Shown: positions 1,911 through 36,556, counted from the first letter of the stretch. The stretch: DNA of 44,632 bases from a phage (GCA_031490075.1 GCA_031490075.1_4354.1); one strand, 5' to 3'. Numbers and translations are program-made. Notes: a model not told the origin generated them from the sequence alone.

Positions 1911-2285
1911 TTAATGCACATACATGGAAACCCGACTCCGTAAAATTGCCATTCGTGTTCACGCTGTTTCTCCTTCCACCGTACCCACATCCGCTGAACC
2001 TCTGGTTCAGCGTAGCCATTGTCTTTCCGGAGCCGGGGTGAACCCAAACCGGCTCCGGAACCATATTTCAAACTGCCGCAAAGTAAGTCTCACTTCCTGG
2101 TAACTTGAAGCCGTTTTCAGTTCTCACCACGTTCTACTCCATCCCGCCGTGGTACACAACCATGTCTTCTAAATCCAGGTCTATAATGGTTCCTACTTTG
2201 AAGATGCCTTTAGTCAGTTCACTGTCTCTTTTTGTAACTTTAACTTCTAACATTTCGTTTTCCTCTGTCTCGTCTGTGTAAATGA

Positions 2286-2314
2286 ATAGTAGCCTATTCT
2301 ATCTTAGTGTGCAA
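2286..2314 (-). promoter_or_regulatory. Sigma70-like promoter with embedded palindrome (TTGCAC-N17-TACTAT on minus strand)
   Basis: Read on the minus strand: TTGCAC, 17-bp spacer, TACTAT; contains AATAG-N4-CTATT at 2285-2298. Confidence 0.6.
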
Positions 2315-2408
2315 GTAAATTTTATTGGTGTTTGTATTGTTGCATTTCCTGCAATAGTCGCTTCGATTGTTGCGTTTGGTGGAATAGAACAAAAATGAGA
2401 AAAATGAT

Positions 2409-2428
2409 ACGCTGCTGTGTAGCAGCGT
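2409..2428 (-). terminator. Hairpin terminator (minus strand)
   Basis: ACGCTGCT-GTGT-AGCAGCGT 8-bp stem, followed on the minus strand by a T-run. Confidence 0.5.
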
Positions 2429-2925
2429 AAGTCACTCAGTAAAATCCCAAACTATTGAACATCACACCTCCGGCGGCTCAGGTAACGGCATCCAGTGCGT
2501 TATATCACCGTGATATAAACTCTTTGCAGGCCCCAGTAGCCATCTGAATTAACACGCATAACCTCACAGCCAACAAAACAATCAGTTACAAGAACGTATT
2601 CATAAGGCTCCGGCAGCATCTCACTACACTTAATCCACTCGCCCATAAATCACCCCTTATTCATCACAGCTTGCACACCAGCTTTCCACGCCCGCCACGC
2701 GAGACGTGTCTTAACGTTCAGGTACTCTTTCTTCGAACCCTTATTAACCGGCAGACCCTCGACGACGGCCCACCGTTCGAATGCTTCTCTCATACCAGAA
2801 CCTCGCATTCATCCCGATACACGAACAATAATGACCCTTTGTACTCAACCATAAAACCATAATGGTTGCTGCTGAACGTCAGAAAAACATCACCTACCGA
2901 GATACCGAAATCTATAAGCCTGCGG

Positions 2926-3165
2926 TCAGTTATTCGAATTTTCATTAACGGCAACCTCCCTCAGAGTCGTCGGCACGAGCATCATGATTAGATGCCGTTG
3001 TGTATATACCGGGACTGTGTATCTTCCTGTCTTAATCCACCAGCCATCCTCACAGGAATCCAGTACATTGAAAACATCACCCACATTTACGCCTATGCTT
3101 TCCAGAGTATCGTCGTCGTCTTTTTCGTAGGAAACTGTGTTATCTGTAATTATGATTTGCATCAC
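2926..3165 (-). CDS. Hypothetical protein
   Basis: ORF with acidic stretch; overlaps the next ORF. Confidence 0.4.
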   Translation of the reverse strand: MMQIIITDNTVSYEKDDDDTLESIGVNVGDVFNVLDSCEDGWWIKTGRYTVPVYTQRHLIMMLVPTTLREVAVNENSNN

Positions 3166-3359
3166 TTCGCCCCTTTGAATTTAAAATTGTTGCCGATGAG
3201 TTTTAACTCATTAGCTTCGTAATAAACCGAAGAAGTTAATCCGTCCCGCCTGATATAACGGATGATATAGGACCCTGGGTATACGACAGACTCTTTTCCG
3301 ACAACACCAAAGCCATATGCTGTTTTCACCAACTGACCCTTCTTAAACATAACCATCAC
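3162..3359 (-). CDS. Hypothetical protein
   Basis: ORF directly downstream of the minus-strand promoter at 3385-3413. Confidence 0.45.
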   Translation of the reverse strand: MMVMFKKGQLVKTAYGFGVVGKESVVYPGSYIIRYIRRDGLTSSVYYEANELKLIGNNFKFKGAK

Positions 3360-3384
3360 TCCTCTGTCTCGTTCCGATAAGTGA

Positions 3385-3413
3385 ATAGTATCCTATTATG
3401 TTGGGGTGTGCAA
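3385..3413 (-). promoter_or_regulatory. Sigma70-like promoter with embedded palindrome (TTGCAC-N17-TACTAT on minus strand)
   Basis: Read on the minus strand: TTGCAC, 17-bp spacer, TACTAT; AATAG-N4-CTATT at 3384-3397. The flanking sequence is closely similar to the promoter at 2286-2314. Confidence 0.6.
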
Positions 3414-3577
3414 GATAATAGTTACGTTGCCGTTGTGATTCTTTTGTTTCTTAAAAGAGTACGCAACGCAGTGGGTGGGCGTTAGCCCACCCCAGCGGAG
3501 TGAAGTACTCTCTACCTTGCTCACGGCAACTATAGAAACTTTTAATTATCAGTGACTTGGATATTTAGGCGGGATTA

Positions 3578-3722
3578 ACAATAGACTTTGACCCTTCCGA
3601 AAGCGTCAGCGGAACTACACTCAAGTGCCTAATGGCACGCGTTGCGTTCCCTGCCGCTCCGCGGTCGCTTGCGATATCTCACAAGCTCAGTGAAGCTTAG
3701 CATATTTTCAAGTAAAAGTCAA
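3578..3722 (+). repeat. Copy 1 of a ~145-bp imperfect direct repeat (partner at 36292..36434)
   Basis: Shared blocks cccttccgaa, gcgtcagcg, aactacactca, cgcggtcgcttg, cacaagctcag, catatttt, aaagtcaa in the same order and orientation. Confidence 0.7.
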
Positions 3723-3769
3723 TACCAGTAGCATCTTTTGTATTTTAGTAACTTTGCGTGGTGTTTTGG

Positions 3770-3798
3770 TTGCTTTTACAAAGTTACCGCCTTATACT
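3770..3798 (+). promoter_or_regulatory. Sigma70-like early promoter (TTGCTT-N17-TATACT)
   Basis: Consensus-like hexamers with 17-bp spacing upstream of the first plus-strand gene; no palindrome. Confidence 0.5.
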
Positions 3799-3827: not shown

Positions 3828-3998
3828 ATGACTATCAATGAAGTTGCAGAATTAATCGGCGTCACCCGCCAGACGATCAATAACTGGATTAAGAGTGGAA
3901 AGTTTCCTGATTGCAGCGTTAAAGTAATGGGGCGCCGTTTACCAGGAACATTTGACCGTAATAAAGTTGAAGCGTGGATTAAGGAGAACGTGAAATGA
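3828..3998 (+). CDS. HTH DNA-binding protein (AlpA/excisionase-like fold)
   Basis: MTINEVAELIGVTRQTINNWIKSG is a typical helix-turn-helix; ATG at 3828 with GGAG upstream. The longest ORF starts at 3738 but that would overlap the promoter. Confidence 0.65.
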   Translation: MTINEVAELIGVTRQTINNWIKSGKFPDCSVKVMGRRLPGTFDRNKVEAWIKENVK

Positions 3999-4285
3999 AA
4001 GGTGTAATTTTCCACGATAAAGAAAATGACAGTGCTTATATGGTCTATTTAGTGCAAGGTGAGTATGCGTTGTGTTTTAACGTTTCCTGTAAACTGGACT
4101 CATATTTGCCGTTTTGCGTTACAGAAGAATTGCAGTTGATTAGTCTAAGAAGACTCAGCACAATGTCGGCTTCCATCGATGTCTCCGACCACCTATCCTA
4201 CGTTTATCAGTATTTCGGGGATGAGATTGTCGCAGATTATTACCGTAAGTACGCGCATTTGATGGAATGTCTGGCTAATAGATAA
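3995..4285 (+). CDS. Hypothetical protein
   Basis: ATGA-coupled to the upstream gene. Confidence 0.45.
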   Translation: MKGVIFHDKENDSAYMVYLVQGEYALCFNVSCKLDSYLPFCVTEELQLISLRRLSTMSASIDVSDHLSYVYQYFGDEIVADYYRKYAHLMECLANR

Positions 4286-4342
4286 AAGAAGGCCCCAGCG
4301 TTAGAGCGCCGAGGCCAAATTACTTGCTGAAGGAAATACAAC

Positions 4343-6628
4343 ATGTCCGATGTAATTTTATCCTACTCGTGGTCACGCCGCAACGCGCGGGCGGGAAAAA
4401 AGGATATAAATGTCAGAACCGCACACACGGCAACACTGGACGACCTGAAAGAGTTAATCCAGCCGCTCGATGCCGTTCGCGACGGGATTAACCCTAAGAC
4501 CGCGCCCGGTTATATCACCGCCGCGTGCGACTCAACGCACAGCACCGTAAAAGACCCGGAAACTGGAGACTTTAAGCAAGCGCGTAAAGGTTTTTTCTAC
4601 CGCTGCGATGCGTCTGTAAGCAAATCGTCGCTGGCCTATCTGGATTTCGACAGCACAACACCGGAAGAGTATCAGGAAGCGGTGCGCCTGGTTAAGCGCA
4701 GCCGCCGGGCTATGTGCCTCTATACTACGGCGTCACATACCGATGAGTCTCCGCGCTTTCGCGTCGTCATGCCGCTGGCCCGTCCTGTTGAAGGCGGCGA
4801 CATCATCCGCGTTCGCCATGGATTGTTGGAACACTTCTTCAAAGGCATGGGCGCTGACCGCAGCGGGTTCACTCTTTCACAACCGATGTACCTGCCGCCA
4901 GTTGGCTCTCAGGTTATCTGGTCACGCCGCAATGACCTGGTTAACCCTGACGAGTTACTGGAGGGCATACCGGATTACGAGGTGAGCAGCGCATCGGATT
5001 ACCAGATACCGGAAGAACTGCGCACCGCGTTTACGGATGCGTTCGAGGCACTCGCGTTCGAGTATGGCGGCGTCATGACACCGCGTGGCCTGAAAATGCC
5101 AGCTACGCCGGAACACGCAGAGAACTACAGCGACCCGACCCCGCGCCCGGATGACTTCCTGCTGTGCTTCCCGCGCGAGGGGTATGAAGCGCCTAACGTA
5201 ACCATGATCCACGACACTGACATCACGGCAACCGAAGGCATGTCGCCGAAAGAGGTGTGGAAATACGTGTGCGATGCGACCGGGCTGCCATTCAGTGAAG
5301 TGGCAGAGGCTATCGGATGGGGGGCGCGTGAATCTGTTTCATGCAGCCTCGACGACCTGGAAGACGACGAGGACCCAGAGGAAGATGAGTTACCGGAACC
5401 GGTAAAGGCTGATTTCGTCGTTGAGGGGTACATGCCGTCGGATTGCATCTGGGATATTGTCGGGGAATCTGGCACGTACAAATCGTTCTATACGCTGGGG
5501 ATGATGTACCTTAGCGCCGCCGGATACAGGTTTGCTGGGGCAGATACCCAGCGTTGCCATCACTTCTATATCGACGGTGAGGGTGGCGCCACCACACGAA
5601 CACGTATTGATGCACTCGCGGCTAAATATGGTGAGGAAGGTAAAGATTATGTACATGTCATCGATATGGGCGAAATACTCGCTACGCATGGTGATAAAAA
5701 AATTCCAGCTCTAATCCGCAGGATGCGCGAAACCGCAGTGGATGAACCTATTGGCATGGTTGCCTTCGACACCCTTAACCAGACGCTGGCCCTGACGATT
5801 GATAAGTTCGACGAGAACAGTTCATCAACGGCAATCGGTATGGGTAAAGTTATCGCCATCCTGAAAGAAGTGCGCGATGCAACTAAAGCCGCTGTCGGTG
5901 TCGTTCACCATACTCCGAAGGGCGGAAAGAAAGCCCGCGGCAGTGGAGCATTGTATGCGGGTGTCGACGTGGAACTGACAATCGAACGCGCTACCGACCG
6001 TCAGATAAACGTATACCACTCTAAATTTAAGCACGGGCCTCAGCAGAAGACGGTTGGCATGGTGCTGGAGTCGGTACAGTTCCGTGAAGCGCCGCCGCCT
6101 AAAGAATACCGAGCGGTTGAGTTCCTGGGTAGCACAGAGGAATACGGCACAATCGTAAACCTGGACCTGCCTGAACCACACAAGGCGCTTGTGTTGATGC
6201 CGTGGGGTTTCGAGCCGTTCAAAACTGACGAGGAGAAAGAGCGGGAAGAAGGGTTGACGAAAGAAGGTAAAGAAAATGTACGTAAAACCGTAGAGAACGC
6301 CGTCAACAGTTCGGAGGCCACGATACTCGCGGCGTTTGAACTGGCGGAAGGAACCTACAACGGCAACGAAGGCATCACAGTCGCCGCGGCGAATAAGCTC
6401 GCACAGTCAGACCCCAACGCAAAGGAGTTTAACTCCAAAGAAGCCATAGAACGCGGGAAGATTAAGAAAATGGTTGAGGCTGGGTATCTTGTTCCGGGTA
6501 CTGACGAAAACAATCAGATAATCCCAGGCCGTTACAGACTGAACACCATGATAACAGATAACAAGATTCCGAAGACAATATACGAACCGAATGAAATGCT
6601 GACAGTGACCGAGGAGGATTTGGAATGA
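4343..6628 (+). CDS. Replication protein with RecA-like ATPase domain (putative primase/helicase)
   Basis: 761 aa; Walker A-like GESGTYKS and downstream Walker B-like acidic motif in the C-terminal half; N-terminal domain of primase-like size; position in the replication module. Confidence 0.6.
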   Translation: MSDVILSYSWSRRNARAGKKDINVRTAHTATLDDLKELIQPLDAVRDGINPKTAPGYITAACDSTHSTVKDPETGDFKQARKGFFYRCDASVSKSSLAYLDFDSTTPEEYQEAVRLVKRSRRAMCLYTTASHTDESPRFRVVMPLARPVEGGDIIRVRHGLLEHFFKGMGADRSGFTLSQPMYLPPVGSQVIWSRRNDLVNPDELLEGIPDYEVSSASDYQIPEELRTAFTDAFEALAFEYGGVMTPRGLKMPATPEHAENYSDPTPRPDDFLLCFPREGYEAPNVTMIHDTDITATEGMSPKEVWKYVCDATGLPFSEVAEAIGWGARESVSCSLDDLEDDEDPEEDELPEPVKADFVVEGYMPSDCIWDIVGESGTYKSFYTLGMMYLSAAGYRFAGADTQRCHHFYIDGEGGATTRTRIDALAAKYGEEGKDYVHVIDMGEILATHGDKKIPALIRRMRETAVDEPIGMVAFDTLNQTLALTIDKFDENSSSTAIGMGKVIAILKEVRDATKAAVGVVHHTPKGGKKARGSGALYAGVDVELTIERATDRQINVYHSKFKHGPQQKTVGMVLESVQFREAPPPKEYRAVEFLGSTEEYGTIVNLDLPEPHKALVLMPWGFEPFKTDEEKEREEGLTKEGKENVRKTVENAVNSSEATILAAFELAEGTYNGNEGITVAAANKLAQSDPNAKEFNSKEAIERGKIKKMVEAGYLVPGTDENNQIIPGRYRLNTMITDNKIPKTIYEPNEMLTVTEEDLE

Positions 6629-6939
6629 ATATTTACGATTTTATAGATAACCCGTTTAAAGCAGTGAAGGCAGGATACCGCCCGTCATACCTGACATGTG
6701 TTTCCGCTGTAAGCAACAACTGGTGGACTTTTTGTGTGTATGCAGCGGGGATTTTTGCGGAGTTTAAAGACATTTTAGACATGACGCTGGCAGAGATTAT
6801 AAAGTGCCTTTTCAAATTAATTATATCGATAACTATTGTTATAAGTTTTCCTGTAAGTGCGTGGTTTCTCGCCTGGATTCAGTACCTGAACGTGCAACAC
6901 ACTATTAAGAATTTGGAAGAACTCGATAAGTTGCTATAA
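6625..6939 (+). CDS. Small membrane protein
   Basis: ATGA-coupled to the upstream gene; hydrophobic segments; AT-rich codon usage unlike its neighbours. Confidence 0.45.
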   Translation: MNIYDFIDNPFKAVKAGYRPSYLTCVSAVSNNWWTFCVYAAGIFAEFKDILDMTLAEIIKCLFKLIISITIVISFPVSAWFLAWIQYLNVQHTIKNLEELDKLL

Positions 6940-6944
6940 AAAGA

Positions 6945-6963
6945 AAGGGGCTTTAAGCCCCTT
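6945..6963 (-). terminator. Hairpin terminator, probably bidirectional
   Basis: AAGGGGCT-TTA-AGCCCCTT with a T-run on the minus strand; sits between the convergent genes 6625..6939 and 6953..7168. Confidence 0.5.
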
Positions 6964-7168
6964 CACCTAACGCCAGCCACTTGGCGTCTACTTCCAGAAC
7001 TTCCGCCAGTTTGAACAGCGTTGCCGGGCGGACGTCCTGAGTTACTCCAAGTGCCAGTTGGTTAATCGCGCCCTGGGAAACGCCGGTCAGGGCCGCCAAA
7101 CGGCGCTGGGAGATGCCGAGTTCTTTACGGCGTTGTTCTACACGGATACCTAGTTCAGATGGTTGCAT
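6953..7168 (-). CDS. XRE-family HTH transcriptional regulator (Cro/CI-like)
   Basis: GISQRRLAALTGVSQGAINQLALG is a canonical HTH_3 motif; 71 aa; divergently transcribed from the early operon. Confidence 0.8.
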   Translation of the reverse strand: MQPSELGIRVEQRRKELGISQRRLAALTGVSQGAINQLALGVTQDVRPATLFKLAEVLEVDAKWLALGEGA

Positions 7169-7198
7169 GTCAATTACTCCTTAGTCAGTTGATATGTG

Positions 7199-7228
7199 AA
7201 TAGTACCATATTAATTATTTTAGAAAAG
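7199..7228 (-). promoter_or_regulatory. Putative promoter of the XRE regulator gene with imperfect palindrome
   Basis: Minus-strand -10 TACTAT with weak -35; imperfect site AATAG-N4-ATATT at 7199-7212. Confidence 0.35.
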
Positions 7229-7232
7229 CCCA

Positions 7233-7261
7233 TTGACATGTGAATAGTTCGCTATTATAGT
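7233..7261 (+). promoter_or_regulatory. Sigma70-like promoter with embedded palindrome (TTGACA-N17-TATAGT)
   Basis: TTGACA, 17-bp spacer, TATAGT; spacer contains AATAG-N4-CTATT (7243-7256). Confidence 0.65.
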
Positions 7262-7289
7262 TAGCCCATACCAAACGAGAGGGGCGGAT

Positions 7290-7517
7290 ATGAACACAAT
7301 AACGGGAGCCATAGCTAAAGGTTTTCTAGCAATTTTCGGAGAATCGCAGGAAGTGTGCACAAAACATAAATTTGTACTTTCTTGCGTAGTCGGGGACGAG
7401 TTTGATGGGTTCGATAAACTTGTTGTCTGCGACCATTGCGGGCAAGAAGCTATTCAACACCCAAACGGTAAATTTGAATTAATAGACGATAGCCTTACAG
7501 AAGGCGACGGCGAGTAA
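7290..7517 (+). CDS. Hypothetical Cys-containing small protein
   Basis: GAGG upstream of ATG; CxxxxxxxC and CDHC suggest possible metal binding. Confidence 0.45.
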   Translation: MNTITGAIAKGFLAIFGESQEVCTKHKFVLSCVVGDEFDGFDKLVVCDHCGQEAIQHPNGKFELIDDSLTEGDGE

Positions 7518-7541
7518 CCCAAATAAACAGGAGAATAAATA

Positions 7542-8051
7542 ATGTTAGAGAAATTCTTAGTATTACTGGAACGTTTCGTAGTTGCGCATGAACTGATTGC
7601 TGCGAACAGTGCACGCCGTACTGAACTGCCGAAGGCTATCACGGCGCCATATGGTAAAGACGTCGACAGTGGTGTCGCAGAAACTGCAACAATCACGCCT
7701 ACTGTTGTAAAAGAAGAAACAAAAGAAATCCCGGTCGAGGGTGAAGACGTAGTTGACACTAAACCGGCGGAGGAAGATAAGCCAAAACGCAAGCCGCGTA
7801 AAGCTAAAGTAGAGGAACCTGCGCCAGAACCGGAAGAAGAGAAAGAAGAAGTCGATTACAAGTCTCTGCGTGACCAGATTCAGGCCATCGACGATGCAAT
7901 TAATGAAGGTCCTAGCGATGCCGCGTGCGATGATTCTGATGAACTGCTGGAAGAGTTCACAGGTAAGAAGATGAAGATTGCCGCGATTAAAGACGAAGAC
8001 CTGGTTGAGTACCTGGAACGCCTGACAGCAATCAAGAACAAGTATTTCTAA
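7542..8051 (+). CDS. Highly acidic hypothetical protein
   Basis: AGGAG upstream; long Glu/Asp/Lys-rich low-complexity region. Confidence 0.5.
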   Translation: MLEKFLVLLERFVVAHELIAANSARRTELPKAITAPYGKDVDSGVAETATITPTVVKEETKEIPVEGEDVVDTKPAEEDKPKRKPRKAKVEEPAPEPEEEKEEVDYKSLRDQIQAIDDAINEGPSDAACDDSDELLEEFTGKKMKIAAIKDEDLVEYLERLTAIKNKYF

Positions 8052-8067
8052 GAAGAATAACTATCTC

Positions 8068-8090
8068 GCGGCCTTCGGGCCGCTTTAACT
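8068..8090 (+). terminator. Hairpin terminator
   Basis: GCGGCC-TTCG-GGCCGC followed by TTTAACT. Confidence 0.45.
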
Positions 8091-8103
8091 GAGGGTCGGA
8101 ATT

Positions 8104-8376
8104 ATGATTTACCAACTCTACCGAGCCGTCGACAGGTGGGATAACACAGAGGCGCTATGGCTATTGCGTGCTCCGTCCGGTGCGCACCAGATGGAAGAGA
8201 TGGCGTACTTAGGAAAAGTACCACGGCCTAAAGATATAGGCCGTCACGTGTCGCGGATTAAACGCACGACATTCGCCAAGCCCGACTTTTATGTCTTCGA
8301 GTCGATGTATGGATGGGCCTTACATTGCGACCACAAGACACGGCATTTAATTGACCAGTGGGAGAACAGAGCATGA
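8104..8376 (+). CDS. Hypothetical protein
   Basis: ORF; stop overlaps the next start (ATGA). Confidence 0.4.
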   Translation: MIYQLYRAVDRWDNTEALWLLRAPSGAHQMEEMAYLGKVPRPKDIGRHVSRIKRTTFAKPDFYVFESMYGWALHCDHKTRHLIDQWENRA

Positions 8377-9614
8377 TTCTAAAAGAACGAGGCGGCAATA
8401 ATGATGTACACGCCTTACTGTCACCGTCAGGCGCTAAAAAGTGGCTGTCATGCGCTGCGTCGCTGGCGTGTGAAAAAGATATCCCTAACACGTCGGGTAA
8501 AGCCGCGGTATTAGGAACCGCCATGCACACCATAGCTGAGGTCCATCTCAACGCCTATATCCGCGGCACTGCGTTGCCGTTGGAGCGTGAAGTCGGCGCT
8601 TACGTACTGGATGAAGGCAAAGGTCAGATTAAGGCGCTAATCAGCCCGATGAAAGGCGCGGTACTGATTACGGCGGACATGATTGAGCAGGTGCGCAAGT
8701 ACACCGACTACTGCAAAGCGATTATAGACGTAGCGACTTACGCCAAGCTGGAAATGCGTGTCAATCTTACTGAGGTATTGCATCCGGGGTATGAAGGCGT
8801 TGAGACGTTCGGAACCGCTGACCTCGTTGCTGTCCAGGAACTGGCAAACACTGACGAGCACATGCTCATTATCGGCGACCTGAAAACCGGGCGGCATCGC
8901 ATCGAAGCGAAAGAAAACAAGCAGCTTATGCTTTACGCTCTCGGTGTTTATCGTCGACTCAAGAGACGTTATAACATAACAACCGTTCGTCTGGTCATCT
9001 TCCAGCCTTACGCTGGGGGCGCGACAGAGTGGGACATCTCGGTTGAAGGACTGGAACTGTTCGCTAAGTTCGCACAGAAACGCGCGCTGTTAGCGCTTGA
9101 TGCGTATTTCCGTGGCAAGAAGAACCTGAAAGCGTCGGACTTCAAGCCATCGGTAGATGGTTGTCAGTGGTGCCGGTTCTCTGAACAATGCGCTGCGCGT
9201 ACAAAGACGGTTAATTCTGTACTGGCGGAAGAACTGGAGGACGACTTTGCGCTGGAACTGACGCCTGAACAACTCGTAGCTGAGTATGAGAAGTTGCCGT
9301 TGTTGCGCCAGCACATCGACAAGGTTGAGAAAGCGATGGCGGCCTCGTTGCATTCCGGTAAGAAAGTGCCGGGGTACAAGCTGGTTGAAGGCCGCCCGGG
9401 TAATCGTGCGTGGGAAGATGCAGAGAAAGTGGCTGGCAAGTATGGCATAGCGCTAATGAAGCAAGTGCTCATGACGCCAACCGAAGCGGTTAAAGTCATA
9501 CCGGAAGAAGAACTGAAAGACTTCATTACCCGTAAGCCAGGCGCACCATGTGTTGCAACGGCAGACGACAAACGTCCTGAGTGGAATAGGGTAACAGAGG
9601 AGGATTTAGAATGA
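8373..9614 (+). CDS. PD-(D/E)XK exonuclease, Cas4-like
   Basis: GDLKTGR and QLMLYAL motifs; N-terminal Cys plus C-terminal CQWCRFSEQC (C-x2-C-x5-C) typical of the Cas4/AddB-type Fe-S nuclease domain. Start placed at ATG 8373; the longest ORF starts at GTG 8358. Confidence 0.75.
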   Translation: MILKERGGNNDVHALLSPSGAKKWLSCAASLACEKDIPNTSGKAAVLGTAMHTIAEVHLNAYIRGTALPLEREVGAYVLDEGKGQIKALISPMKGAVLITADMIEQVRKYTDYCKAIIDVATYAKLEMRVNLTEVLHPGYEGVETFGTADLVAVQELANTDEHMLIIGDLKTGRHRIEAKENKQLMLYALGVYRRLKRRYNITTVRLVIFQPYAGGATEWDISVEGLELFAKFAQKRALLALDAYFRGKKNLKASDFKPSVDGCQWCRFSEQCAARTKTVNSVLAEELEDDFALELTPEQLVAEYEKLPLLRQHIDKVEKAMAASLHSGKKVPGYKLVEGRPGNRAWEDAEKVAGKYGIALMKQVLMTPTEAVKVIPEEELKDFITRKPGAPCVATADDKRPEWNRVTEEDLE

Positions 9615-9814
9615 TTCAAGTAAATGAAATGCCCACAGATAAAGATTTTGTGATGATATGGCGCTGGGGCGGTTATATCCATTCGGAATCGTTTACGTTC
9701 CTGAACGGCACGATGGTGCGATACAACCATGTGGAGGATGAATTCGAACCCGTTGATATGAATGATTTCGAGAACATAGTCCGTATTGCGAAATTTTATT
9801 TGACACCTGAATAG
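9611..9814 (+). CDS. Hypothetical protein
   Basis: ATGA-coupled to the nuclease gene. Confidence 0.4.
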   Translation: MIQVNEMPTDKDFVMIWRWGGYIHSESFTFLNGTMVRYNHVEDEFEPVDMNDFENIVRIAKFYLTPE

Positions 9815-9828
9815 TTAGCTATTATAGT
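9800..9828 (+). promoter_or_regulatory. Sigma70-like promoter with embedded palindrome (TTGACA-N17-TATAGT)
   Basis: TTGACA, 17-bp spacer, TATAGT; AATAG-N4-CTATT at 9810-9823. Confidence 0.65.
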
Positions 9829-9896
9829 TCTAATCACTGACCGGGCAGCTTCCCGGAGTAAACTTTGAAATATAAACTGAAAAGCGAGAAATCACG

Positions 9897-10523
9897 ATGG
9901 GTATTAAACTGAATCTGCGTAAAGTAAACACTGCTTGGGTTAACGTATTCGAACGCGAAAAAGACCGTGAAAACGATGATGGCTCAATCACTAAAGGTCA
10001 GTACAGCGCAACCATTATCCTGCCGTCCGACCATGCTCAAATCGATGCGCTCTACGACACTGTTTACGCTGTAGTTGAAGAAGCGTTGGGTGCTGCCGCT
10101 GCCGAGAAATGGATGAAGTCCAACTACGGCGAAGGTAAGCACATGGATAAATGCGCGATTAAAGACATTGCCGAGCGCGACAATCCATTTGAAGACTTCC
10201 CGGAGGGCTTCTACTTCAAAGCGAAAGCACAAAAACAGCCGCTGATTGTAACCTCTAAAAAAGGTGAGACTCAGGTAGAACAGGACTTCAACGTAGACGG
10301 CGAACAGATTGAAGGTGAACAGGTTTACAGCGGATGCTTAGCTAACGTAAGCGTTGAAATCTGGTTCAGCCAGAAATACAAAGTCCTCGGCGTTAACCTG
10401 CTGGCGATTAAATACGTTGGCGAAGGCAAAGCGTTCGGCGGTTCTAAAGTCGCTGCGAGCGTCAATGACCTGGAAGACGACGAAGAAGATGAAGCACCGC
10501 GCCGCGAACGTCGTCGCCGCTAA
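9897..10523 (+). CDS. Putative ssDNA-binding protein (DUF2815-like)
   Basis: Position between a Cas4-like nuclease and a family A polymerase is a recurrent phage module; acidic C-terminal region. Family call is from memory and tentative. Confidence 0.45.
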   Translation: MGIKLNLRKVNTAWVNVFEREKDRENDDGSITKGQYSATIILPSDHAQIDALYDTVYAVVEEALGAAAAEKWMKSNYGEGKHMDKCAIKDIAERDNPFEDFPEGFYFKAKAQKQPLIVTSKKGETQVEQDFNVDGEQIEGEQVYSGCLANVSVEIWFSQKYKVLGVNLLAIKYVGEGKAFGGSKVAASVNDLEDDEEDEAPRRERRRR

Positions 10524-10542
10524 TATCTTAATCAATTTAACT

Positions 10543-10565
10543 AAGGCCCTTCATTGGGCCTTTTT
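10543..10565 (+). terminator. Rho-independent terminator
   Basis: AAGGCCC-TTCATT-GGGCCTT followed by TTTTT. Confidence 0.6.
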
Positions 10566-10734
10566 ACTAAGGGTCGAAAATAATGTTTTTCTGTAAACAC
10601 GTTTATCGCTATATGAAACCGCTTCCTTGGTACGCGGATGAGTACCGGGCCGGGTACAGGCATGTGTGGATTTGCCGTGATTGTATGAAAATAAGACTCA
10701 GCGAAACGAAGGCACTGGATTTAAGGAAAAAGAA

Positions 10735-12906
10735 ATGAGCTACTTATACCTGGACTTTGAAACATTCTCCGAAGCCGATTTAAAGAAAGTCGGTTCCTAC
10801 GCTTACGCCGAACACCCAACCACCGAAGTGCTTATCTGCACATATGCTTTTGACGACGAGCCTGTACAGGTATGGGATTGCACAGACGGCAGCGACATGC
10901 CGGGGGATTTGCACCGCGCACTGCGCCGCCTGGTGAAGCCGAACAGTCGTATTAAGACGGTGTGGCACAACGGCTCAATGTTCGACAGGCTCATCATGAA
11001 ACACTGCTGGGGCTTTGATATTCCCGTAAGCAACACCATTGATACGATGATTTGGGCGTTTCGTCACGCGCTGCCGGGTTCACTTGACGCATTGTGCGAA
11101 GTGCTTGGCGTGTCCGCCGACAACGCGAAAGACAAACGAGGCAAGGCGCTGATTCAGCGTTTCTCTAAACCGACGCCGAAGAACTACAAAATCCGCCGCT
11201 ACACCGCTGAAACACATCCCGATGAGTGGGCGCTGTTCATCAAGTATGCCGTTAGCGACATTACTGCGATGCGTGAAGTCTTCCATAAGCTGCCGCGGTG
11301 GGGTAACTCGGAGTTCGAAGACCGTGTACTGGAACTGGACCAGTTAATCAATGACCGTGGGTTTAAGGTTGACGTCGCGCTGGCGGAAGCTGCAATTGAA
11401 GCTGTGGAGAAACACAAGGCGCAGTTACAGGAAGAAGCCCAACGCAAATACGGCGGCTCACTTACCGGTAAAGACTTTCTGCCTATTCTGCGTGAACTCG
11501 CCCCCGCGCACCGCATCCACAATGCACAGAAGTCGACGCTGAATGACCTTCTTGCTGATGATGATTTACCGGACGACGCCCGGATGATTATCGAAATGCG
11601 CCTCGGGGCCGCGTCAACAGCGTCCACGAAATATAACCCGCTGCTGTTAGGCCGCTCGTCGGACGACCGACGCCGCGGTTGTATCCAGTACGGTGGGGCA
11701 AAGCGTACGTTACGGTTCGCGGGTAAAGGCTTCCAGCCACAGAACCTGGCGCGTGGGTACTATCACGATGATGAACTGGATAAAGGCATTTCAGCGTTAC
11801 TTAAGGGCCGGGCGCACCGCCGATTTGACGTAGCCAAGCTGACGGCATCGACCGTTCGTAGCTGCATCATACCGGAAGCAGGGCATAAGTTTGTCGTTGC
11901 CGATTACTCTAACGTCGAAGGCCGCGGTCTTGCGTGGCTGGCGGGTGAAGACGATTTAATCGAAGTATTTGTAAACGGGGTTGATGTGTATAAGAAACTC
12001 GCATCAACGGTGTTCAATGTTGCATATGAAGCCGTAACAAAGGACCAAAGACAAATAGCCAAAGCAATGGTTCTGGGACTCGGCTACGCGGGGGGCGTCG
12101 GTGCTTTCGTCACGTTTGCTAAAAACTTAGGTCTTGATTTGAATGACATGACTAACACTTTAGACGGTACATTCCCGGACCATATTTGGGCCGCTACCGC
12201 ACGCGGATACGAATGGGCGCGTATTCAGGAAGCCAAGCGACCACCACGTCCTGGTGAAAAAGATGACCGACCCTCATATATCCTTGATAAGAAAGTTTGG
12301 CGCACCTGTGACGCTTTAAAGCGCATGTACCGGGAAGCTAATCCTGCAATAGTCCAATTCTGGCGCGATATTGAAGACGCAGCTATGGCAGCAATCCGTA
12401 ATCCGGGGAAAGAGTTCACCGCTGGCCCTCGCGGGGTTAAGTTTTCTCGCAACGTAGAAACAGACAACAACGGCAACAAAGTCGCTGGTTGGTGGTTGCG
12501 CATGACGTTGCCGTCAGGTCGCGTTATGTCATACCCGGGCGTCGGATTAAGTGTGTCGAAAGAGACAGACGAAGATGGAAAGGTGTCTACTAACGTGCGC
12601 ATCAAGTACCAGGGCGAAAACCAGTTAACCCGGCAGTGGGGCTTCCAGTACACCTACTCTGGTAAACTGGTGGAAAACTGCACTCAGGCGTTGTGCCGTG
12701 ATTTGCTGGCCAACGCGCTGCTGAACGTAGAAGCAAACGGTTATCCAATTGTACTTCATGTCCACGATGAGATTATCTGCGAAACTCCAGATACGCCGGA
12801 ATACAATGTCGCAGAGCTTGAGCGATTGATGTGCGAATTACCAGAATGGGCGGAGGGGTTCCCTCTTGTAGCGGAAGGTCAGGAGTTAAAACGCTATGCT
12901 AAGTAA
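10735..12906 (+). CDS. DNA polymerase, family A, with 3'-5' exonuclease domain
   Basis: LDFETFS (exonuclease motif), DYSNVEGRGLAW (motif A), RQIAKAMVLGLGYAGG (motif B), VHDEI (motif C). ATG at 10735 with AAGGAAAAAG upstream; the longest ORF begins at TTG 10681. Confidence 0.9.
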   Translation: MSYLYLDFETFSEADLKKVGSYAYAEHPTTEVLICTYAFDDEPVQVWDCTDGSDMPGDLHRALRRLVKPNSRIKTVWHNGSMFDRLIMKHCWGFDIPVSNTIDTMIWAFRHALPGSLDALCEVLGVSADNAKDKRGKALIQRFSKPTPKNYKIRRYTAETHPDEWALFIKYAVSDITAMREVFHKLPRWGNSEFEDRVLELDQLINDRGFKVDVALAEAAIEAVEKHKAQLQEEAQRKYGGSLTGKDFLPILRELAPAHRIHNAQKSTLNDLLADDDLPDDARMIIEMRLGAASTASTKYNPLLLGRSSDDRRRGCIQYGGAKRTLRFAGKGFQPQNLARGYYHDDELDKGISALLKGRAHRRFDVAKLTASTVRSCIIPEAGHKFVVADYSNVEGRGLAWLAGEDDLIEVFVNGVDVYKKLASTVFNVAYEAVTKDQRQIAKAMVLGLGYAGGVGAFVTFAKNLGLDLNDMTNTLDGTFPDHIWAATARGYEWARIQEAKRPPRPGEKDDRPSYILDKKVWRTCDALKRMYREANPAIVQFWRDIEDAAMAAIRNPGKEFTAGPRGVKFSRNVETDNNGNKVAGWWLRMTLPSGRVMSYPGVGLSVSKETDEDGKVSTNVRIKYQGENQLTRQWGFQYTYSGKLVENCTQALCRDLLANALLNVEANGYPIVLHVHDEIICETPDTPEYNVAELERLMCELPEWAEGFPLVAEGQELKRYAK

Positions 12907-13027
12907 ACTGATTATCGCGGTACTGGCGGGATTTGCCGCAGGTGTCTACTGTCACGAGGGTCAATACGGCATGATGGTTGCCATATTGGGCATGTTCATC
13001 GCAATTTATCTGTGGGTGCTGGAATGA
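12896..13027 (+). CDS. Small hydrophobic peptide (43 aa)
   Basis: First of a chain of ATGA-coupled small ORFs leading into the VRR-NUC gene; below the 60-aa cutoff of the ORF track. Confidence 0.35.
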   Translation: MLSKLIIAVLAGFAAGVYCHEGQYGMMVAILGMFIAIYLWVLE

Positions 13028-13543: not shown

Positions 13544-13573
13544 CCATACACCAACAATATAAGGAATTGAGAA

Positions 13574-16508: not shown

Positions 16509-16514
16509 AGAAAA

Positions 16515-26775: not shown

Positions 26776-26884
26776 TCTTTAATCCTTTGGTTAAGAGGTT
26801 ACGGGTTAACGATAAATGCGCCAGACGGGAACCACCCGCTTTTCGTGTGCGACACTAGGCGCAAAAATTATTCTACCACAATAC

Positions 26885-26913
26885 TTGCACACCCCAATAT
26901 AATAGGGTACTAT
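26885..26913 (+). promoter_or_regulatory. Sigma70-like promoter with embedded palindrome (TTGCAC-N17-TACTAT)
   Basis: TTGCAC, 17-bp spacer, TACTAT; AATAG-N4-CTATT at 26901-26914; GGAGGGG SD follows. Confidence 0.65.
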
Positions 26914-26943
26914 TCACTTACACCAACAATGGAGGGGTTTAAA

Positions 26944-27135
26944 ATGTCCAGTTTACCAGTTTCCTTAATTCTGTTTGCACTGCTCGCTTATTTCGCGCCT
27001 TTCCTGGTTGCGTATTTCCGTAACCATAAAGCGAAATTAGCGATATTCATGGCTAATCTGTTTCTTGGATGGGTTCTGCTGCCGTGGGTATTTATTTTAA
27101 TCTGGGCTTGCAACTCGAATGTCAAAGAGAAGTGA
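26944..27135 (+). CDS. Small membrane protein (two predicted helices)
   Basis: 63 aa, mostly hydrophobic; start placed at ATG 26944 downstream of the promoter (the longest ORF from 26845 would include the promoter). Confidence 0.5.
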   Translation: MSSLPVSLILFALLAYFAPFLVAYFRNHKAKLAIFMANLFLGWVLLPWVFILIWACNSNVKEK

Positions 27136-27172
27136 GCTAGTATAGGACAAATCCTAAGCACGAGGAATAAAC

Positions 27173-28303
27173 ATGGCCCGGAAGAAAATAACCGACGAAC
27201 AGTTGCAGGAAGAATTGAACGCCGGTATGAAGAATGTAGATATCGCCCGTAAATACGGCATCTCAGACCGCGTAATTCGTATCCGTAAAGCGAAGCTGGC
27301 TAAGAAAGGCGTGGGCCACGGGCGCGACGTTAGCCACCTTGTGCCAGACGGCTACAAGATTAAAGGAACGTCGTCACTTGTGGACGAGTTCGGCAACACT
27401 AAGTTGCAATGGGTTAAGACTGATACCGACGCCGAACGTCAGGTTGAATTGATGAAAGCCGTAATAGAGGGCATGAAGTCAGAGATTACGCCCGTTGCGC
27501 CTGTTAAAGCGGCGCGCGCCAAACGTGACGACAAGCTACTCAATCTTTACACTGTATCTGATTTCCATCTCGGTATGCTGGCATGGGCCGATGAGAGCGG
27601 CGACGACTGGGACATGAAGATTGCAGAAGACCTGTTCTCTCGGTGGTTCGACGCGGCGTTTCAGAAAGCACCGGATGCAGGAACAGGAGTTATTAACCTG
27701 CTTGGGGACTTCGCACACTTCGATAGTCTTGATGCCGTTACCCCCGAGTAGCGCCATGTATTAGATGCGGATACTCGCTATCAGAAACTGGTACGTTACA
27801 TGATTCGTATGGTCCGCCGTGTTGTTGATATGGCGCTGGTTAAGCATCACACAGTAAAACTTTTAATCGTTCAAGGTAACCACGACCCTGTTGGCTCCGT
27901 ATGGCTTGCTGAAATGTTCACGGTTTTATACTCAAACGACAGCCGAGTGATTGTTGATACGTCGCCGGATGTTTACAAGATGGTGCAACACGGCAAAACG
28001 ACGCTGTTCTTCCATCACGGGCATAAAGCACGATTCGACGCTATCGAACCGGTTATGATTGCCAAGTTCCGTAAAGCGTTCGGCGAGAGTGTTTACAGCT
28101 ACGCCCACGTAGGCCATCTGCACCACCAGAAGATTGTAGAAAGCCGTAACATGATTGTTGAGCAACACCGCACCTTAGCGGCTAAAGACGCCTACGCCTC
28201 TCGCGGCGGATGGATGTCGGGCCGCAGTGCAAATGTAATTACTTATAGCGCCGAATATGGCGAGGTCGCACGTTTAACTATTTCACCGGAGATGCTGGGA
28301 TGA
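27173..28303 (+). CDS. Calcineurin-like metallophosphoesterase with N-terminal HTH-like region, interrupted by an in-frame TAG at 27749-27751
   Basis: Track ORFs 27173..27751 and 27800..28303 are in the same frame with a single TAG between them. Motifs SDFHLG and LLGDFAHFD lie upstream of the stop; QGNHD, HHGH and GHLHH lie downstream. Confidence 0.65.
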
Positions 28304-28788
28304 AAGATATTGTAATTTTCGATTTAGACGGGACATTGGCCGACGGTACCCATCGCTTACACCTGTTACCAAAAGATAACTACGGAGAAACGTGGGCGTG
28401 GAAGCCATTTAACATGGCCTGCAAAGATGACGCTCCGATATACGACAATATCCATTTGTGTAGCGTACTGTGGCATTCCGGACTTACTATAATTATCCTT
28501 ACCGGGCGAAGTGATGACGCTGAGGAGGAGACTCGCGAATGGTTACGAGAGAATAACGTTAGGTTTGACACGCTAATCATGCGCAGCAAACACGACAACA
28601 GAAAAGACATCGTAATTAAAGAAGAGGTGTTGCGTGCTTTCGGACTGGAAAGAATCTTGTGTGCGTTCGACGACTCTCCAGCGGTAATAAAGCATTTCCG
28701 TGACCTCGGCATAACCGCACACGCAGTTACCGAATACGACTGTAACGGGAACTCTACACACTTAAAACCACACGGGAGCGATAAATAA
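28300..28788 (+). CDS. HAD-superfamily phosphatase (nucleotidase or polynucleotide 3'-phosphatase-like)
   Basis: N-terminal FDLDGTL is the HAD motif I; start overlaps the upstream stop. Confidence 0.7.
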   Translation: MKDIVIFDLDGTLADGTHRLHLLPKDNYGETWAWKPFNMACKDDAPIYDNIHLCSVLWHSGLTIIILTGRSDDAEEETREWLRENNVRFDTLIMRSKHDNRKDIVIKEEVLRAFGLERILCAFDDSPAVIKHFRDLGITAHAVTEYDCNGNSTHLKPHGSDK

Positions 28789-29342
28789 TGGCTAAGGTAA
28801 TTATTCTTAATGGCCCTGCGGGTTGCGGGAAAGACACGCTTGCTATGGCGCTGGTAGAAATGGGCTTTGCGAAAGGAACTACCAGTTTCAAGAATCCAAT
28901 GTTCAATATTGCTTTGGCAGCGTTAGGCCAGGATGCTTACCACGAATTTCTCGACGGCTACGACGACCGGGCGCGGAAAGAAAAACCAGAGGGTTTTCTT
29001 AATGGGTTGTCCCGCCGCCAGTTAATGATTGCCATTTCTGAGCAATTCATTAAACCGGTATTCGGCGATGATTATTTCGGTAAGTATCTTGCTGAAAACT
29101 TGCCTGACGGCGACGAAGTTTTTGTAGTGTCCGATGGTGGATTCGCCAGTGAAGTTGCCCCTATCGTCGCCGCGGGGCATGACGTGCGAATCGTCCGCCT
29201 CCATCGTGACGGCTATACGTTCATCTGCGATAGCCGTGGCTATCTGTACGATGTTAGTGGTGTAAAAGATTACGACACCTACATCATACCGGGTGACGTT
29301 AAATCGAACGTTATAGACATTGCTTTAAAATTAGGTTTGTAA
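28788..29342 (+). CDS. P-loop kinase (dNMP kinase-like)
   Basis: N-terminal VIILNGPAGCGKDT Walker A with the GKDT variant, which I recall from T4-type dNMP kinases. Confidence 0.55.
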   Translation: MAKVIILNGPAGCGKDTLAMALVEMGFAKGTTSFKNPMFNIALAALGQDAYHEFLDGYDDRARKEKPEGFLNGLSRRQLMIAISEQFIKPVFGDDYFGKYLAENLPDGDEVFVVSDGGFASEVAPIVAAGHDVRIVRLHRDGYTFICDSRGYLYDVSGVKDYDTYIIPGDVKSNVIDIALKLGL

Positions 29343-29348
29343 GAAAAA

Positions 29349-29370
29349 GGCCCCGAAAGGGGCCTTAGTT
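29349..29370. terminator. Bidirectional terminator
   Basis: GGCCCC-GAAA-GGGGCC flanked by A-run and T-run; between convergent genes. Confidence 0.7.
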
Positions 29371-32446: not shown

Positions 32447-32448
32447 TT

Positions 32449-34899: not shown

Positions 34900-34901
34900 T
34901 A

Positions 34902-35603
34902 TTATTTCCTCAGGGCTTTAAGTTGCCGTTCAAATTCGGCAGGGTTCGATTTATACAGGGCTAAACGCTCTGCTTCACTCATGTCTTTAAACGCTGGTGC
35001 GGCCCCGCCGCCTTTGCTACCGGAAGCCCCGCCGCCGGAAGCTGCATTTGCTTTGATCAAATGCGAAAACGCCTTGTGTTCGCGCAGGTATTTGCGGAAC
35101 TGTTCCGGGTCAGTCGTGATTACGTTACCGTCTGCACCAACAAACTTAGTAACCACATCATCGCCTTCGAACTCAGTCTTAACGAACGGCGCAAGAATGT
35201 CCACTGCTTCTGGGGTAATAAAGTCACCCGCGAAAGAGCCTAGCACCGCTTTACGTTCGCTGCCGAGGATACGCTCTGCCATTCTGGAGATGCGACCGTC
35301 TTTCTCGGCTAACACAGGGTCGTACTGGCTACGAATCGTCTTTTCGAACTCATCCATCTTACCAGCGGCTTTTAACGCCTCCTGGTGCGCGCGCTGCCGT
35401 TCTTCTTCGGCCTCTTTTGCTTTGCGAGCGGCTTCTTTCTTCTCCGCCAACAATGCTTCCTGATTAGCCTTAAGCCCGGCAACTTCTTTCTCAATCAGCG
35501 CCTGAACTTCTTCAGCGGTGAACATTTTAGGAGCGTCACCGCCACCAGCTTTATCTTCTGCCCCAGCTTCTTCCTGGAACGGATAACGTAAAAAACGATT
35601 CAT
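34902..35603 (-). CDS. Head scaffolding protein
   Basis: Glu/Lys/Ala-rich coiled-coil protein immediately upstream of the capsid gene; ATG 35603 with GGGGA SD. Confidence 0.55.
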   Translation of the reverse strand: MNRFLRYPFQEEAGAEDKAGGGDAPKMFTAEEVQALIEKEVAGLKANQEALLAEKKEAARKAKEAEEERQRAHQEALKAAGKMDEFEKTIRSQYDPVLAEKDGRISRMAERILGSERKAVLGSFAGDFITPEAVDILAPFVKTEFEGDDVVTKFVGADGNVITTDPEQFRKYLREHKAFSHLIKANAASGGGASGSKGGGAAPAFKDMSEAERLALYKSNPAEFERQLKALRK

Positions 35604-35685
35604 AGTCAGTATGTCCCCTGGACGTTGGAACCCGGGCCACCCGGATTTACATGTCAAGAATAAATTATTCCAACATGCAAGGCAA

Positions 35686-35949
35686 CTATTCCAGAATATT
35701 CCTCACGTAATCCTGCAACATGAACACTTTCAGCCGCAGCTGCCGTACGCATTCAGCATTCTGAACGTCGACGGCCAAATCCTCATCAGCGTCGCTACTT
35801 GGCTGCGCCAGTTTGCACGGCGGCTGCATCATCGTCGTATCCGGGGATGGAATTGGCGTTGGCGACGGCGCGGGACTTGAGCTGCACGCGCTCAGGGTCA
35901 AAAGTGCACACGCTGCGACCAGGCGTTTTAATGTACTTAACGACTTCAC
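35686..35949 (-). CDS. Outer-membrane spanin component (Rz1-like lipoprotein)
   Basis: Signal peptide ending in the lipobox LSAC, then a Pro-rich segment; starts inside the Rz-like gene in a different frame. Confidence 0.5.
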   Translation of the reverse strand: MKSLSTLKRLVAACALLTLSACSSSPAPSPTPIPSPDTTMMQPPCKLAQPSSDADEDLAVDVQNAECVRQLRLKVFMLQDYVRNILE

Positions 35950-36181
35950 GGGTAATCACCTCTGATTTCGTCTTGCCTTCGTTGTCAGCGGCGGCGGCCT
36001 TCGATTCATCCTGCTGCTGCCGTTGTGTTTTCTTCGCTAACTCAGCCTGTGCTTTCTGCTGTTGCTGCGAAACGAGATTAGCCCGGCCTTCGTTCCATCC
36101 GCTGCGATACTGGTAGATGCCGTGTGCGTAAACCAGGATGATGAAACATGCTCCTGCTACGACAGTTGCTTTAAGATTCAT
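35795..36181 (-). CDS. Inner-membrane spanin component (Rz-like)
   Basis: N-terminal transmembrane helix followed by a Gln/Ala/Lys-rich coiled coil; contains the lipoprotein ORF. Confidence 0.55.
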   Translation of the reverse strand: MNLKATVVAGACFIILVYAHGIYQYRSGWNEGRANLVSQQQQKAQAELAKKTQRQQQDESKAAAADNEGKTKSEVITREVVKYIKTPGRSVCTFDPERVQLKSRAVANANSIPGYDDDAAAVQTGAAK

Positions 36182-36291
36182 GTTTCCCCTTTCTCGATAA
36201 GTAAAGCCCCGCCATAAAGCGGGGCGCTAGTCCTTATCATTTAAACATAGAAACGGCGTAATCTCAGTAAACCAGTTACTTTTTACACAAG

Positions 36292-36434
36292 CAATAGAGT
36301 ATGGCCCTTCCGAACGCGTCAGCGTAACTACACTCAGGACTTACGTCCCGCTCCGTTACCTGCCCGCGCCGCGGTCGCTTGTTCATACTTCACAAGCTCA
36401 GGTGGAGCTTATCATATTTTTAGTGAAAAGTCAA
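36292..36434 (+). repeat. Copy 2 of the ~145-bp imperfect direct repeat (partner at 3578..3722)
   Basis: Same conserved blocks in the same order as copy 1. Confidence 0.7.
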
Positions 36435-36500
36435 CTATTCGAATAGTTTATTCCAACATTTACAATTTAGTGGAATAACTGGAATACATAAACAAATAGT

Positions 36501-36529
36501 TTGCGCACCCCGATATAATAGGGTACTAT
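36501..36529 (+). promoter_or_regulatory. Sigma70-like promoter with embedded palindrome (TTGCGC-N17-TACTAT)
   Basis: TTGCGC, 17-bp spacer, TACTAT; AATAG-N4-CTATT at 36517-36530; GAGGAGG SD follows. Confidence 0.65.
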
Positions 36530-36556
36530 TCATTCTATCGAACCGAGGAGGCCGCC

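Follow-up and report, generated by a model that had tools for sequence, protein, structure and literature searches.

In this study, we analysed a 44,632-nucleotide (nt) stretch of phage DNA (GCA_031490075.1_4354.1; hereafter the window) and a palindrome, AATAG-N4-CTATT, that recurs in its promoters. The palindrome is probably the operator of a dimeric helix-turn-helix (HTH) repressor encoded by the phage, most probably the 71-amino-acid (aa) 434-Cro-like HTH_3 protein of positions 6953-7168, here called XRE. We infer that XRE binds the palindrome, that it does so as a dimer and that the effect is repression. The window is about 90-96% identical to genomes of Kagunavirus (Guernseyvirinae), for example vB_EcoS-22664BS2 (22664BS2 below), phiEc3/4, XY1 and K1ind. 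These relatives are E. coli siphophages that are reported to be lytic and to carry no lysogeny genes (PMC7203180).

A pattern search of the whole window found exactly eight perfect copies of AATAG-N4-CTATT, starting at 2285, 3384, 7243, 9810, 13522, 22916, 26901 and 36517, where a preliminary description of this DNA had placed them. Only 0.02 copies were expected from 100 dinucleotide shuffles (maximum 1). With up to one mismatch there are 11 sites against 1.05 expected; the added sites are 7199, which is the imperfect copy AATAGTACCATATT (7199-7212) already noticed in that description, 36426 and 44602. At two mismatches, the count is close to chance (15 observed, 15.8 expected). The palindrome is the commonest 5+N+5 palindrome of the window, the runners-up being terminator stems, and its eight perfect copies carry seven different N4 sequences. 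Together with two conserved one-mismatch copies, they are dispersed from 2285 to 44615. The extended site, TGAATAG-N4-CTATTAT, spans 18 base pairs (bp) and has a 7-N4-7 geometry. Counting all 5-N4-5 palindromes with one mismatch per genome was also tried and proved uninformative, with GC-rich coding repeats dominating.

By a crude gene call, all copies are located within or at the edge of the non-coding 8.2% of the genome, which is the enrichment outside coding sequence that the preliminary description had proposed to check. The copy at 13522 lies inside the final 22 nt of the upstream open reading frame (ORF) and the copy at 9810 overlaps a stop codon, while the remaining sites are intergenic. 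The crude call itself counted 26901 as coding, since the mechanical ORF 26845-27135 begins at a GTG that precedes the likely start codon, the ATG at 26944.

We found that the palindrome lies in sigma70-type promoters of several kinds. Class A, TTGACA-N17-TATAGT, occurs at 7233, 9800 and 13512 on the plus strand, and these are the top three sigma70 matches of our scan (11/12 each). Class B, TTGCAC or TTGCGC-N17-TACTAT, occurs at 2314-2286 and 3413-3385 on the minus strand and at 26885-26913 and 36501-36529 on the plus strand. A third type, TTGCCA-N17-TAGCAT, occupies 22895-22923 on the plus strand. The sites and the promoters that they overlap are as follows.

Positions 2285-2298, minus-strand promoter: operator AATAGTAGCCTATT in class B, TTGCAC (2314-2309)-N17-TACTAT (2291-2286), upstream of small early-left genes from 2253 downward.
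Positions 3384-3397, minus-strand promoter: operator in class B, TTGCAC (3413-3408)-N17-TACTAT (3390-3385), upstream of an ORF starting at 3350.
Positions 7199-7212: imperfect operator just upstream of the XRE gene, covering TACTAT (7205-7200) or about +1 of an alternative promoter, TTCACA-N16-TAAAAT (7244-7217).
Positions 7243-7256, plus-strand promoter: perfect operator in the class A promoter PR, TTGACA (7233)-N17-TATAGT (7261), divergent from the XRE gene; it shares bases, too, with TTCACA, the candidate -35 for the XRE promoter.
Positions 9810-9823, plus-strand promoter: operator in class A (9800-9828), upstream of the genes for a Gp2.5/Enc34-type single-stranded DNA-binding protein (SSB) and DNA polymerase.
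Positions 13522-13535, plus-strand promoter: operator in class A (13512-13540), upstream of a 63-aa protein, the 227-aa ORF 13762-14445 and a helicase gene.
Positions 22916-22929, plus-strand promoter: operator over the -10 and start region of TTGCCA (22895)-N17-TAGCAT (22923), upstream of the homing endonuclease gene 22953-23699.
Positions 26901-26914, plus-strand promoter: operator in class B (26885-26913), upstream of the Imm gene 26944-27135 and the insert operon that runs to 29342.
Positions 36517-36530, plus-strand promoter: operator in class B (36501-36529), upstream of a 26-aa membrane peptide and a 114-aa lipoprotein.
Positions 44602-44615, minus-strand promoter: conserved one-mismatch palindrome ACTAGTTGACTATT (minus strand) over the -35 of TTGACT (44610)-N17-TATATT (44582).

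The last of these adds a tenth promoter to the set first described. All promoter hexamers named in the preliminary description were confirmed base by base, and each copy does overlap a sigma70-type promoter. The palindrome spans -25 to -12 in class A and -19 to -6 in class B, in agreement with the shift of about 6 bp that had been noted between the two classes. A further offset had been missed at 22916, where the palindrome spans -14 to -1 (centre -7.5), and the XRE gene may be served by TTCACA-N16-TAAAAT (10/12) instead of the class B promoter. Relative to the -10 element, the centre of the palindrome thus takes four offsets (-33.5, -18.5, -12.5 and -7.5), all of them on core promoter elements. 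The flanks are asymmetric: relative to transcription, class A reads TGAATAG...CTATTAT and class B has the opposite orientation. Two conserved sigma70 promoters have no palindrome: the promoter of the HTH_17/primase operon, TTGCTT-N17-TATACT at 3770-3798, and the promoter at 38676-38705. The four offsets and the conserved promoters without the palindrome indicate an operator rather than a promoter element. The flipped flanks and the fixed half-sites around a variable N4 likewise support this distinction, which had been drawn from the first sites. The phage-wide regulon proposed on the same basis is a fair description, except that the primase-operon and KilA-N promoters fall outside it.

The motif sequence itself has been reported before with another meaning. 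For phage fBC-Eco01, seven phage promoters per genome were derived by PHIRE, with the consensus tgAATAGTa-ccTATTat-T, which is the same motif read as a promoter of a phage RNA polymerase; the same paper notes two HTH proteins and does not link them to the motif (PMC9825357). For phage Golestan, the published count of PHIRE promoters is likewise seven (PMC7203180). We found no paper that gives the operator reading, and a full-text search for the literal string returned primer and eukaryotic noise. It is very unlikely that the motif is an intrinsic phage-specific promoter, read by a phage-encoded RNA polymerase or a modified host enzyme with no regulator involved. The motif does always coincide with promoters, and CTATTATAGT includes the class A -10 element. 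However, its two-fold symmetry with a free centre, its occurrence at four offsets and in both orientations against canonical sigma70 -35/-10 pairs with 17-bp spacing, and the conserved promoters without it are at odds with such a role. Moreover, no RNA polymerase domain was found in the ten plus-strand replication and insert ORFs that were scanned against Pfam, where helicase-primase, PD-(D/E)XK nuclease, DNA polymerase A, SNF2 helicase and Toprim were among the matches, and the other large ORFs are tape measure, tailspike, tail, portal and terminase genes, judging by annotated relatives.

To follow the palindrome across relatives, we used a comparison set of 60 loci around XRE homologues from IMG/VR and six full genomes. 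AATAG-N4-CTATT is the top 5+N+5 palindrome, alone or tied, in 37/37 Kagunavirus and 11/11 Jerseyvirus loci, so the conservation that the preliminary description had suggested looking for is present in every locus of the two groups examined. The PR copy (7243) is perfect in all 37 Kagunavirus loci, and the imperfect copy at 7199 keeps its mismatch in almost every Kagunavirus sequence examined. We also compared orthologous promoters chosen regardless of the motif, namely the regions upstream of the SSB, p63 and p169 genes, which were found by tblastn. The half-sites are intact there, as at PR, in nearly all Kagunavirus and Jerseyvirus sequences. The central N4, by contrast with the fixed half-sites, varies among TTAG, CAAG, TTGG, TAAG, CGAG, CAAA, TAGA, TACT and others (about 50 related loci). 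The outer flank is GAATAG/TAATAG in Kagunavirus versus TAATAG on both sides in Jerseyvirus.

Cornellvirus has no AATAG-N4-CTATT. Its promoters have ATTAG-N4-GTA[AT]T in its place, located at the Kagunavirus positions in the SSB and PR promoters and at other offsets in other promoters. The XRE orthologue is kept in Cornellvirus (about 41% identity), HTH_17 is absent, and the host is Salmonella, the same as for Jerseyvirus. The interval between XRE and PR, which holds operators, is conserved in Kagunavirus, and Jerseyvirus and Cornellvirus have variants of it. As read from these sequences, the Cornellvirus pattern speaks against a host factor and for a binder that is encoded by the phage and follows the XRE lineage. 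A site for an E. coli or Salmonella transcription factor, through which the phage would sense the state of its host, is in our view very improbable. Such a site could explain why the motif is common to phages of two related hosts, and many enterobacterial operator types resemble AT-rich palindromes of this length. Yet Jerseyvirus and Cornellvirus both infect Salmonella enterica and only Jerseyvirus has the motif, and the motif type follows the phage protein family into unrelated phages. The consensus sites of ArgR, Fur and OxyR differ from the palindrome in spacing or sequence.

Several side observations concern copies of the site and its promoters. The class B promoter-operator units, including their 5' leaders, form direct repeats, 26885-26935 with 36501-36551 and 2261-2320 with 3360-3419, with 75-78% identity over 51-60 nt. 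This similarity suggests that a class B cassette was copied along with the genes that it drives. An extra perfect copy, GGTGTAACAGGTCAATAGGTTACTATTT, was found in seven IMG/VR Kagunavirus loci (L012, L013, L014, L017, L024, L029 and L032) and is probably also carried by 22664BS2 (L001, 43435). It is located at the 3' end of an early-left gene and immediately precedes the terminator hairpin TACGCTGCTACACAGCAGCGTA; no -35 element could be recognised for it. In its counterpart in the window, 2443-2460, the right half-site is destroyed (CAATAGTTTGGGATTTT).

Two small HTH proteins of the window were considered as the binder.

Positions 6953-7168, minus strand: XRE, 71 aa, HTH_3 family (Pfam HTH_3, E = 3.9e-13).
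Positions 3828-3998, plus strand: HTH_17 protein, 56 aa, the rival candidate binder, whose own promoter (3770-3798) is operator-free.

On sequence and fold, XRE is the best candidate binder. Its best matches in the PDB by sequence (phmmer) are 434 Cro (8.5e-6) and the DNA-binding domain of the 434 repressor (E about 1e-5), with P22 c2 weaker. The AlphaFold2 model of XRE has five helices (predicted local distance difference test score 77), and its top Foldseek match is again 434 Cro (2cro; template-modelling (TM) score 0.75/0.81, 40% identity over the aligned part). Controller proteins of restriction-modification (R-M) systems, SinR and HipB follow, and the N-terminal domain of P22 c2 stands lower (TM 0.78). 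In the recognition helix, SQGAINQ, residues 31-33 and 35-37 are invariant and A34 nearly so among 12 close relatives. The XRE gene is divergent from the PR-like promoter, and the 121-bp interval between them (7169-7289) holds two operators, 7199 (imperfect) and 7243 (perfect). In a Kagunavirus RNA sequencing (RNA-seq) time course, an HTH-domain gene is among four early genes (PMC12645636); by gene order, this is probably the XRE gene.

The same type of site also occurs beside distant homologues of XRE, which were retrieved via a common recognition-helix pattern. Apart from one protein of 72 aa, they are CI-like, measure 150-230 aa and in some cases have a C-terminal domain of the LexA type. 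A[AT]TAG-N4/5-CTA[AT]T occurs 16 times in about 95 kb, in six of the eight distant loci, against roughly 0.7 by chance (our own estimate). All of these sites are located at most 100 bp upstream of the homologue gene or in a second cluster 0.7-2.4 kb downstream, a two-cluster layout that, in the sequence, is the classic OR/OL pattern. No HTH_17 homologue was found in the distant XRE/CI loci.

The distant CI-like homologue L061 supplied no experimentally established operator for comparison, as its best relatives are uncharacterised (Variovorax and Burkholderia phages), followed by 434 cI (31%). Other candidates and roles were set aside. XRE resembles C.BclI and C.AhdI in fold, and a role as an R-M controller (C) protein was rejected: its gene is not beside the methyltransferase region of the relatives, no R-M endonuclease partner of the gene was seen, and the site is unlike a C-box, which is of the GACT...AGTC type and lies upstream of its own R-M operon. 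The 63-aa protein downstream of the 13512 promoter, examined as a possible regulator, looks small and beta-rich.

Several observations weigh against XRE as the repressor that reads the palindrome. The HTH_17 protein has exactly the same range as the motif: Kagunavirus and Jerseyvirus encode it (443 records) and Cornellvirus does not. Between Kagunavirus and Jerseyvirus, HTH_17 is 79% identical and XRE 48%, and the higher value suits the unchanged core motif better. The recognition helix of XRE reads SQGAINQ in Kagunavirus versus SQSLITH in Jerseyvirus beside the same AATAG core, which strict co-variation would not predict. The Cornellvirus sites are just partly symmetric. In addition, the 44610 promoter has CTATTATA(G/T)T at its -10 with no left half-site beside it; part of the class A right half-site may therefore be promoter context. 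Lastly, the RNA-seq time course, which is coarse, puts most replication genes in the middle class and Imm in the late class (PMC12645636), and these classes do not obviously fit a simple early shut-off.

The first two of these observations would be explained if the operator were bound by the HTH_17 protein, which is of the AlpA/excisionase type, either as a repressor or as an AlpA-like factor loaded at promoters. We consider this unlikely. Quasi-palindromes remain in the Cornellvirus SSB and PR promoters at the same positions although HTH_17 is absent, and the same operator type stands beside distant XRE/CI homologues at loci without it. Its recognition helix varies within Kagunavirus (TRQTINN versus SPMTLNR in K1G) while the operators are unchanged, and its own promoter has no operator. 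To our knowledge, small HTH_17/Xis-type proteins are not usually readers of two-fold symmetric 14-bp sites. As a speculation, HTH_17 may have another job, at the leader-like element described below or in antitermination; the AlpA family, to which HTH_17 belongs, includes an antiterminator.

The middle and late classes, together with offsets that range from -33.5 to -7.5, also leave room for class-specific effects. XRE might bind without being a uniform repressor, so that it represses class A and activates or tunes the other promoters, or it might mainly exclude related superinfecting phages. We judge this improbable, because at all offsets the protein would cover the -35, spacer or -10, and proteins bound there normally keep RNA polymerase out. 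Moreover, the promoters already have workable hexamers and 17-bp spacers.

If XRE is a repressor that reads the palindrome, the following sequence of events can be proposed. XRE would be produced early, from a weak promoter adjoining the strongest early promoter. As it accumulates, two monomers would occupy the two half-sites of an operator. Since all operators overlap a host sigma70 promoter at its -35, spacer or -10, bound XRE would exclude E. coli RNA polymerase. About ten promoters would be damped together: three of the replication module, the early-left promoters, that of XRE itself, and the insert promoters of the Imm operon, the lipoprotein unit and the homing endonuclease. The uncontacted central 4 bp, the one-mismatch copies and the differing offsets could give graded promoter sensitivity, and the operator-free promoters of the primase operon (3770-3798) and the KilA-N gene (38676-38705) would escape.

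The pair resembles known phage repressors in several respects. By sequence and fold the best match is 434 Cro, which is also 71 aa long and has the five-helix HTH_3 fold; the 14-bp two-fold symmetric operator over promoter elements, and the regulator gene divergent from a regulated early promoter, are further likenesses. The 434 operator is ACAA-N6-TTGT, whereas the half-sites here are arranged 5-N4-5, and about ten operators are dispersed where 434 has two triplets. There is also no partner cI/cro pair here, no integrase and no lysogeny. In line with this, we did not find a cI/cro bistable switch: XRE was the only HTH_3 protein found, and the 75-aa product of 7290-7517, downstream of PR, was rejected as a regulator, since it matched neither an HTH nor any Pfam family and K1G and Jersey lack it.

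P1 C1 and L5 gp71, with its 'stoperators', are single repressors with many genome-wide operators that bring unrelated operons under common control, and the copies here are likewise many and dispersed. The P1 C1 and L5 sites are asymmetric, belong to immunity repressors of temperate phages and, in L5, act within transcription units. In contrast, the sites here are palindromic, lie on core promoters and belong to a virulent phage. The best architectural precedent appears to be the P22 repressor. Its 18-bp symmetric operators are contacted at positions 2-7 and 12-17, and the central 4 bp are uncontacted and unconserved and tune affinity (PMC4267663). TGAATAG-N4-CTATTAT has the same 7-N4-7 layout, and the P22 c2 N-terminal domain is among the fold matches of XRE. 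The differences are that the half-site sequence is another one, that XRE has no C-terminal dimerisation or cleavage domain, and that the phage here is virulent. For virulent phages, our literature search turned up no direct counterpart of a Cro-like early shut-off.

A Cro-like dimer that blocks sigma70 promoters follows textbook logic, and the finding is useful rather than surprising. What is new is the operator reading, in which a virulent phage would use a 434/P22-type pair across its whole genome, much like the P1 C1 regulon; the motif sequence was already known. Phages of Kagunavirus and Jerseyvirus, with over 400 sequenced genomes, are widely isolated for use against E. coli and Salmonella in therapy and biocontrol, and their gene regulation has hardly been studied. 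The operator reading would provide a map of about ten co-regulated promoters, show which promoters escape, and suggest how the central 4 bp might rank them. XRE and its operator could serve as a compact orthogonal repressor/operator pair for engineering such phages. The inserted genes (superinfection immunity, lipoprotein, homing endonuclease) would be tied into the circuit of the phage itself.

A wider proposal is possible, though we hold it only tentatively and would not bet on it. The time program of the virulent Kagunavirus and Jerseyvirus phages might run on the repressor domain of a temperate CI-like ancestor, cut down to Cro size. At least ten graded promoters would then form a single-protein clock, morons and the homing endonuclease would have joined it via the promoter-operator cassette, and the late genes would be freed from it by a separate promoter, by a leader RNA with structure (the duplicated element described below) and by read-through of terminators.

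The gene layout around these promoters is as follows. The replication module (3828-16508, plus strand) encodes HTH_17, a helicase-primase, a PD-(D/E)XK nuclease, the Gp2.5/Enc34-type SSB, DNA polymerase A and an SNF2 helicase, and also holds the 227-aa ORF 13762-14445; the relatives have a methyltransferase annotated in the same region. Small early genes, lysis genes and structural genes are located on the minus strand, interrupted by short plus-strand inserts.

From 22953, plus strand: homing endonuclease.
Positions 26944-29342, plus strand: operon of Imm (superinfection immunity), a phosphoesterase and a kinase.
Positions 36557-36978, plus strand: membrane peptide and lipoprotein.
From 38737, plus strand: KilA-N protein.

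The homing endonuclease gene (22953-23699), of the T5orf172/GIY-YIG type, sits on the opposite strand within the tail-gene block. Its promoter has a perfect operator at a unique offset, and the closest relative, 22664BS2, has no copy at the matching place. This mobile gene appears to be wired into the control circuit of the phage. The KilA-N promoter, TTGATT-N18-TAGAAT (38676-38705), has no AATAG palindrome and carries a perfect 12-2-12 inverted repeat of its own, AAATTCTACATT-CA-AATGTAGAATTT, over the spacer and -10 (38676-38707). The repeat suggests a second, separate operator-regulator pair.

The insert units and the replication module end in GC-rich hairpins of one family, AAGGCCCC-N4-GGGGCCTT, at 29347-29366, 37051-37070, 39395-39414 and 16513-16532. 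Two of these hairpins, 29347-29366 and 37051-37070, are scored as terminators for either strand. Late transcripts of the minus strand would have to pass such hairpins, in keeping with a requirement for antitermination.

The two longest intergenic regions of the window each hold a non-coding element of about 150 nt, at 3575-3735 (copy 1) and 36290-36435 (copy 2), and the two are about 83% identical. This leader-like element was found in 23 of the sequences searched, and two of them, the window and 22664BS2, have two copies. On the minus strand, it opens with an invariant promoter-like box, TTGACT-N17-TAAGCT (3722-3694 and 36434-36406). In the structured segment after the box, one basal pair is A-U, U-A or C-G, and the apical hairpin occurs with five different complementary stems; its G-U pairs fit the minus strand only. 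RNAalifold on a plain MAFFT alignment showed no covariation, with the variable hairpin misaligned, and anchored extraction recovered it. No Rfam family matched the window at the gathering threshold, and at E up to 1 the sole hit in the two leader-like regions was at chance level, on the terminator hairpin 36206-36225 (E = 0.63). After copy 2 come the terminator at 36225-36206 and, beyond it, the late gene block; after copy 1 come a GC hairpin and the class B promoter at 3413. By analogy, the element may be a late-promoter/leader (antitermination) element, and its layout recalls lambda PR'/6S and HK022 put, which are late-promoter/leader/terminator arrangements that need antitermination.

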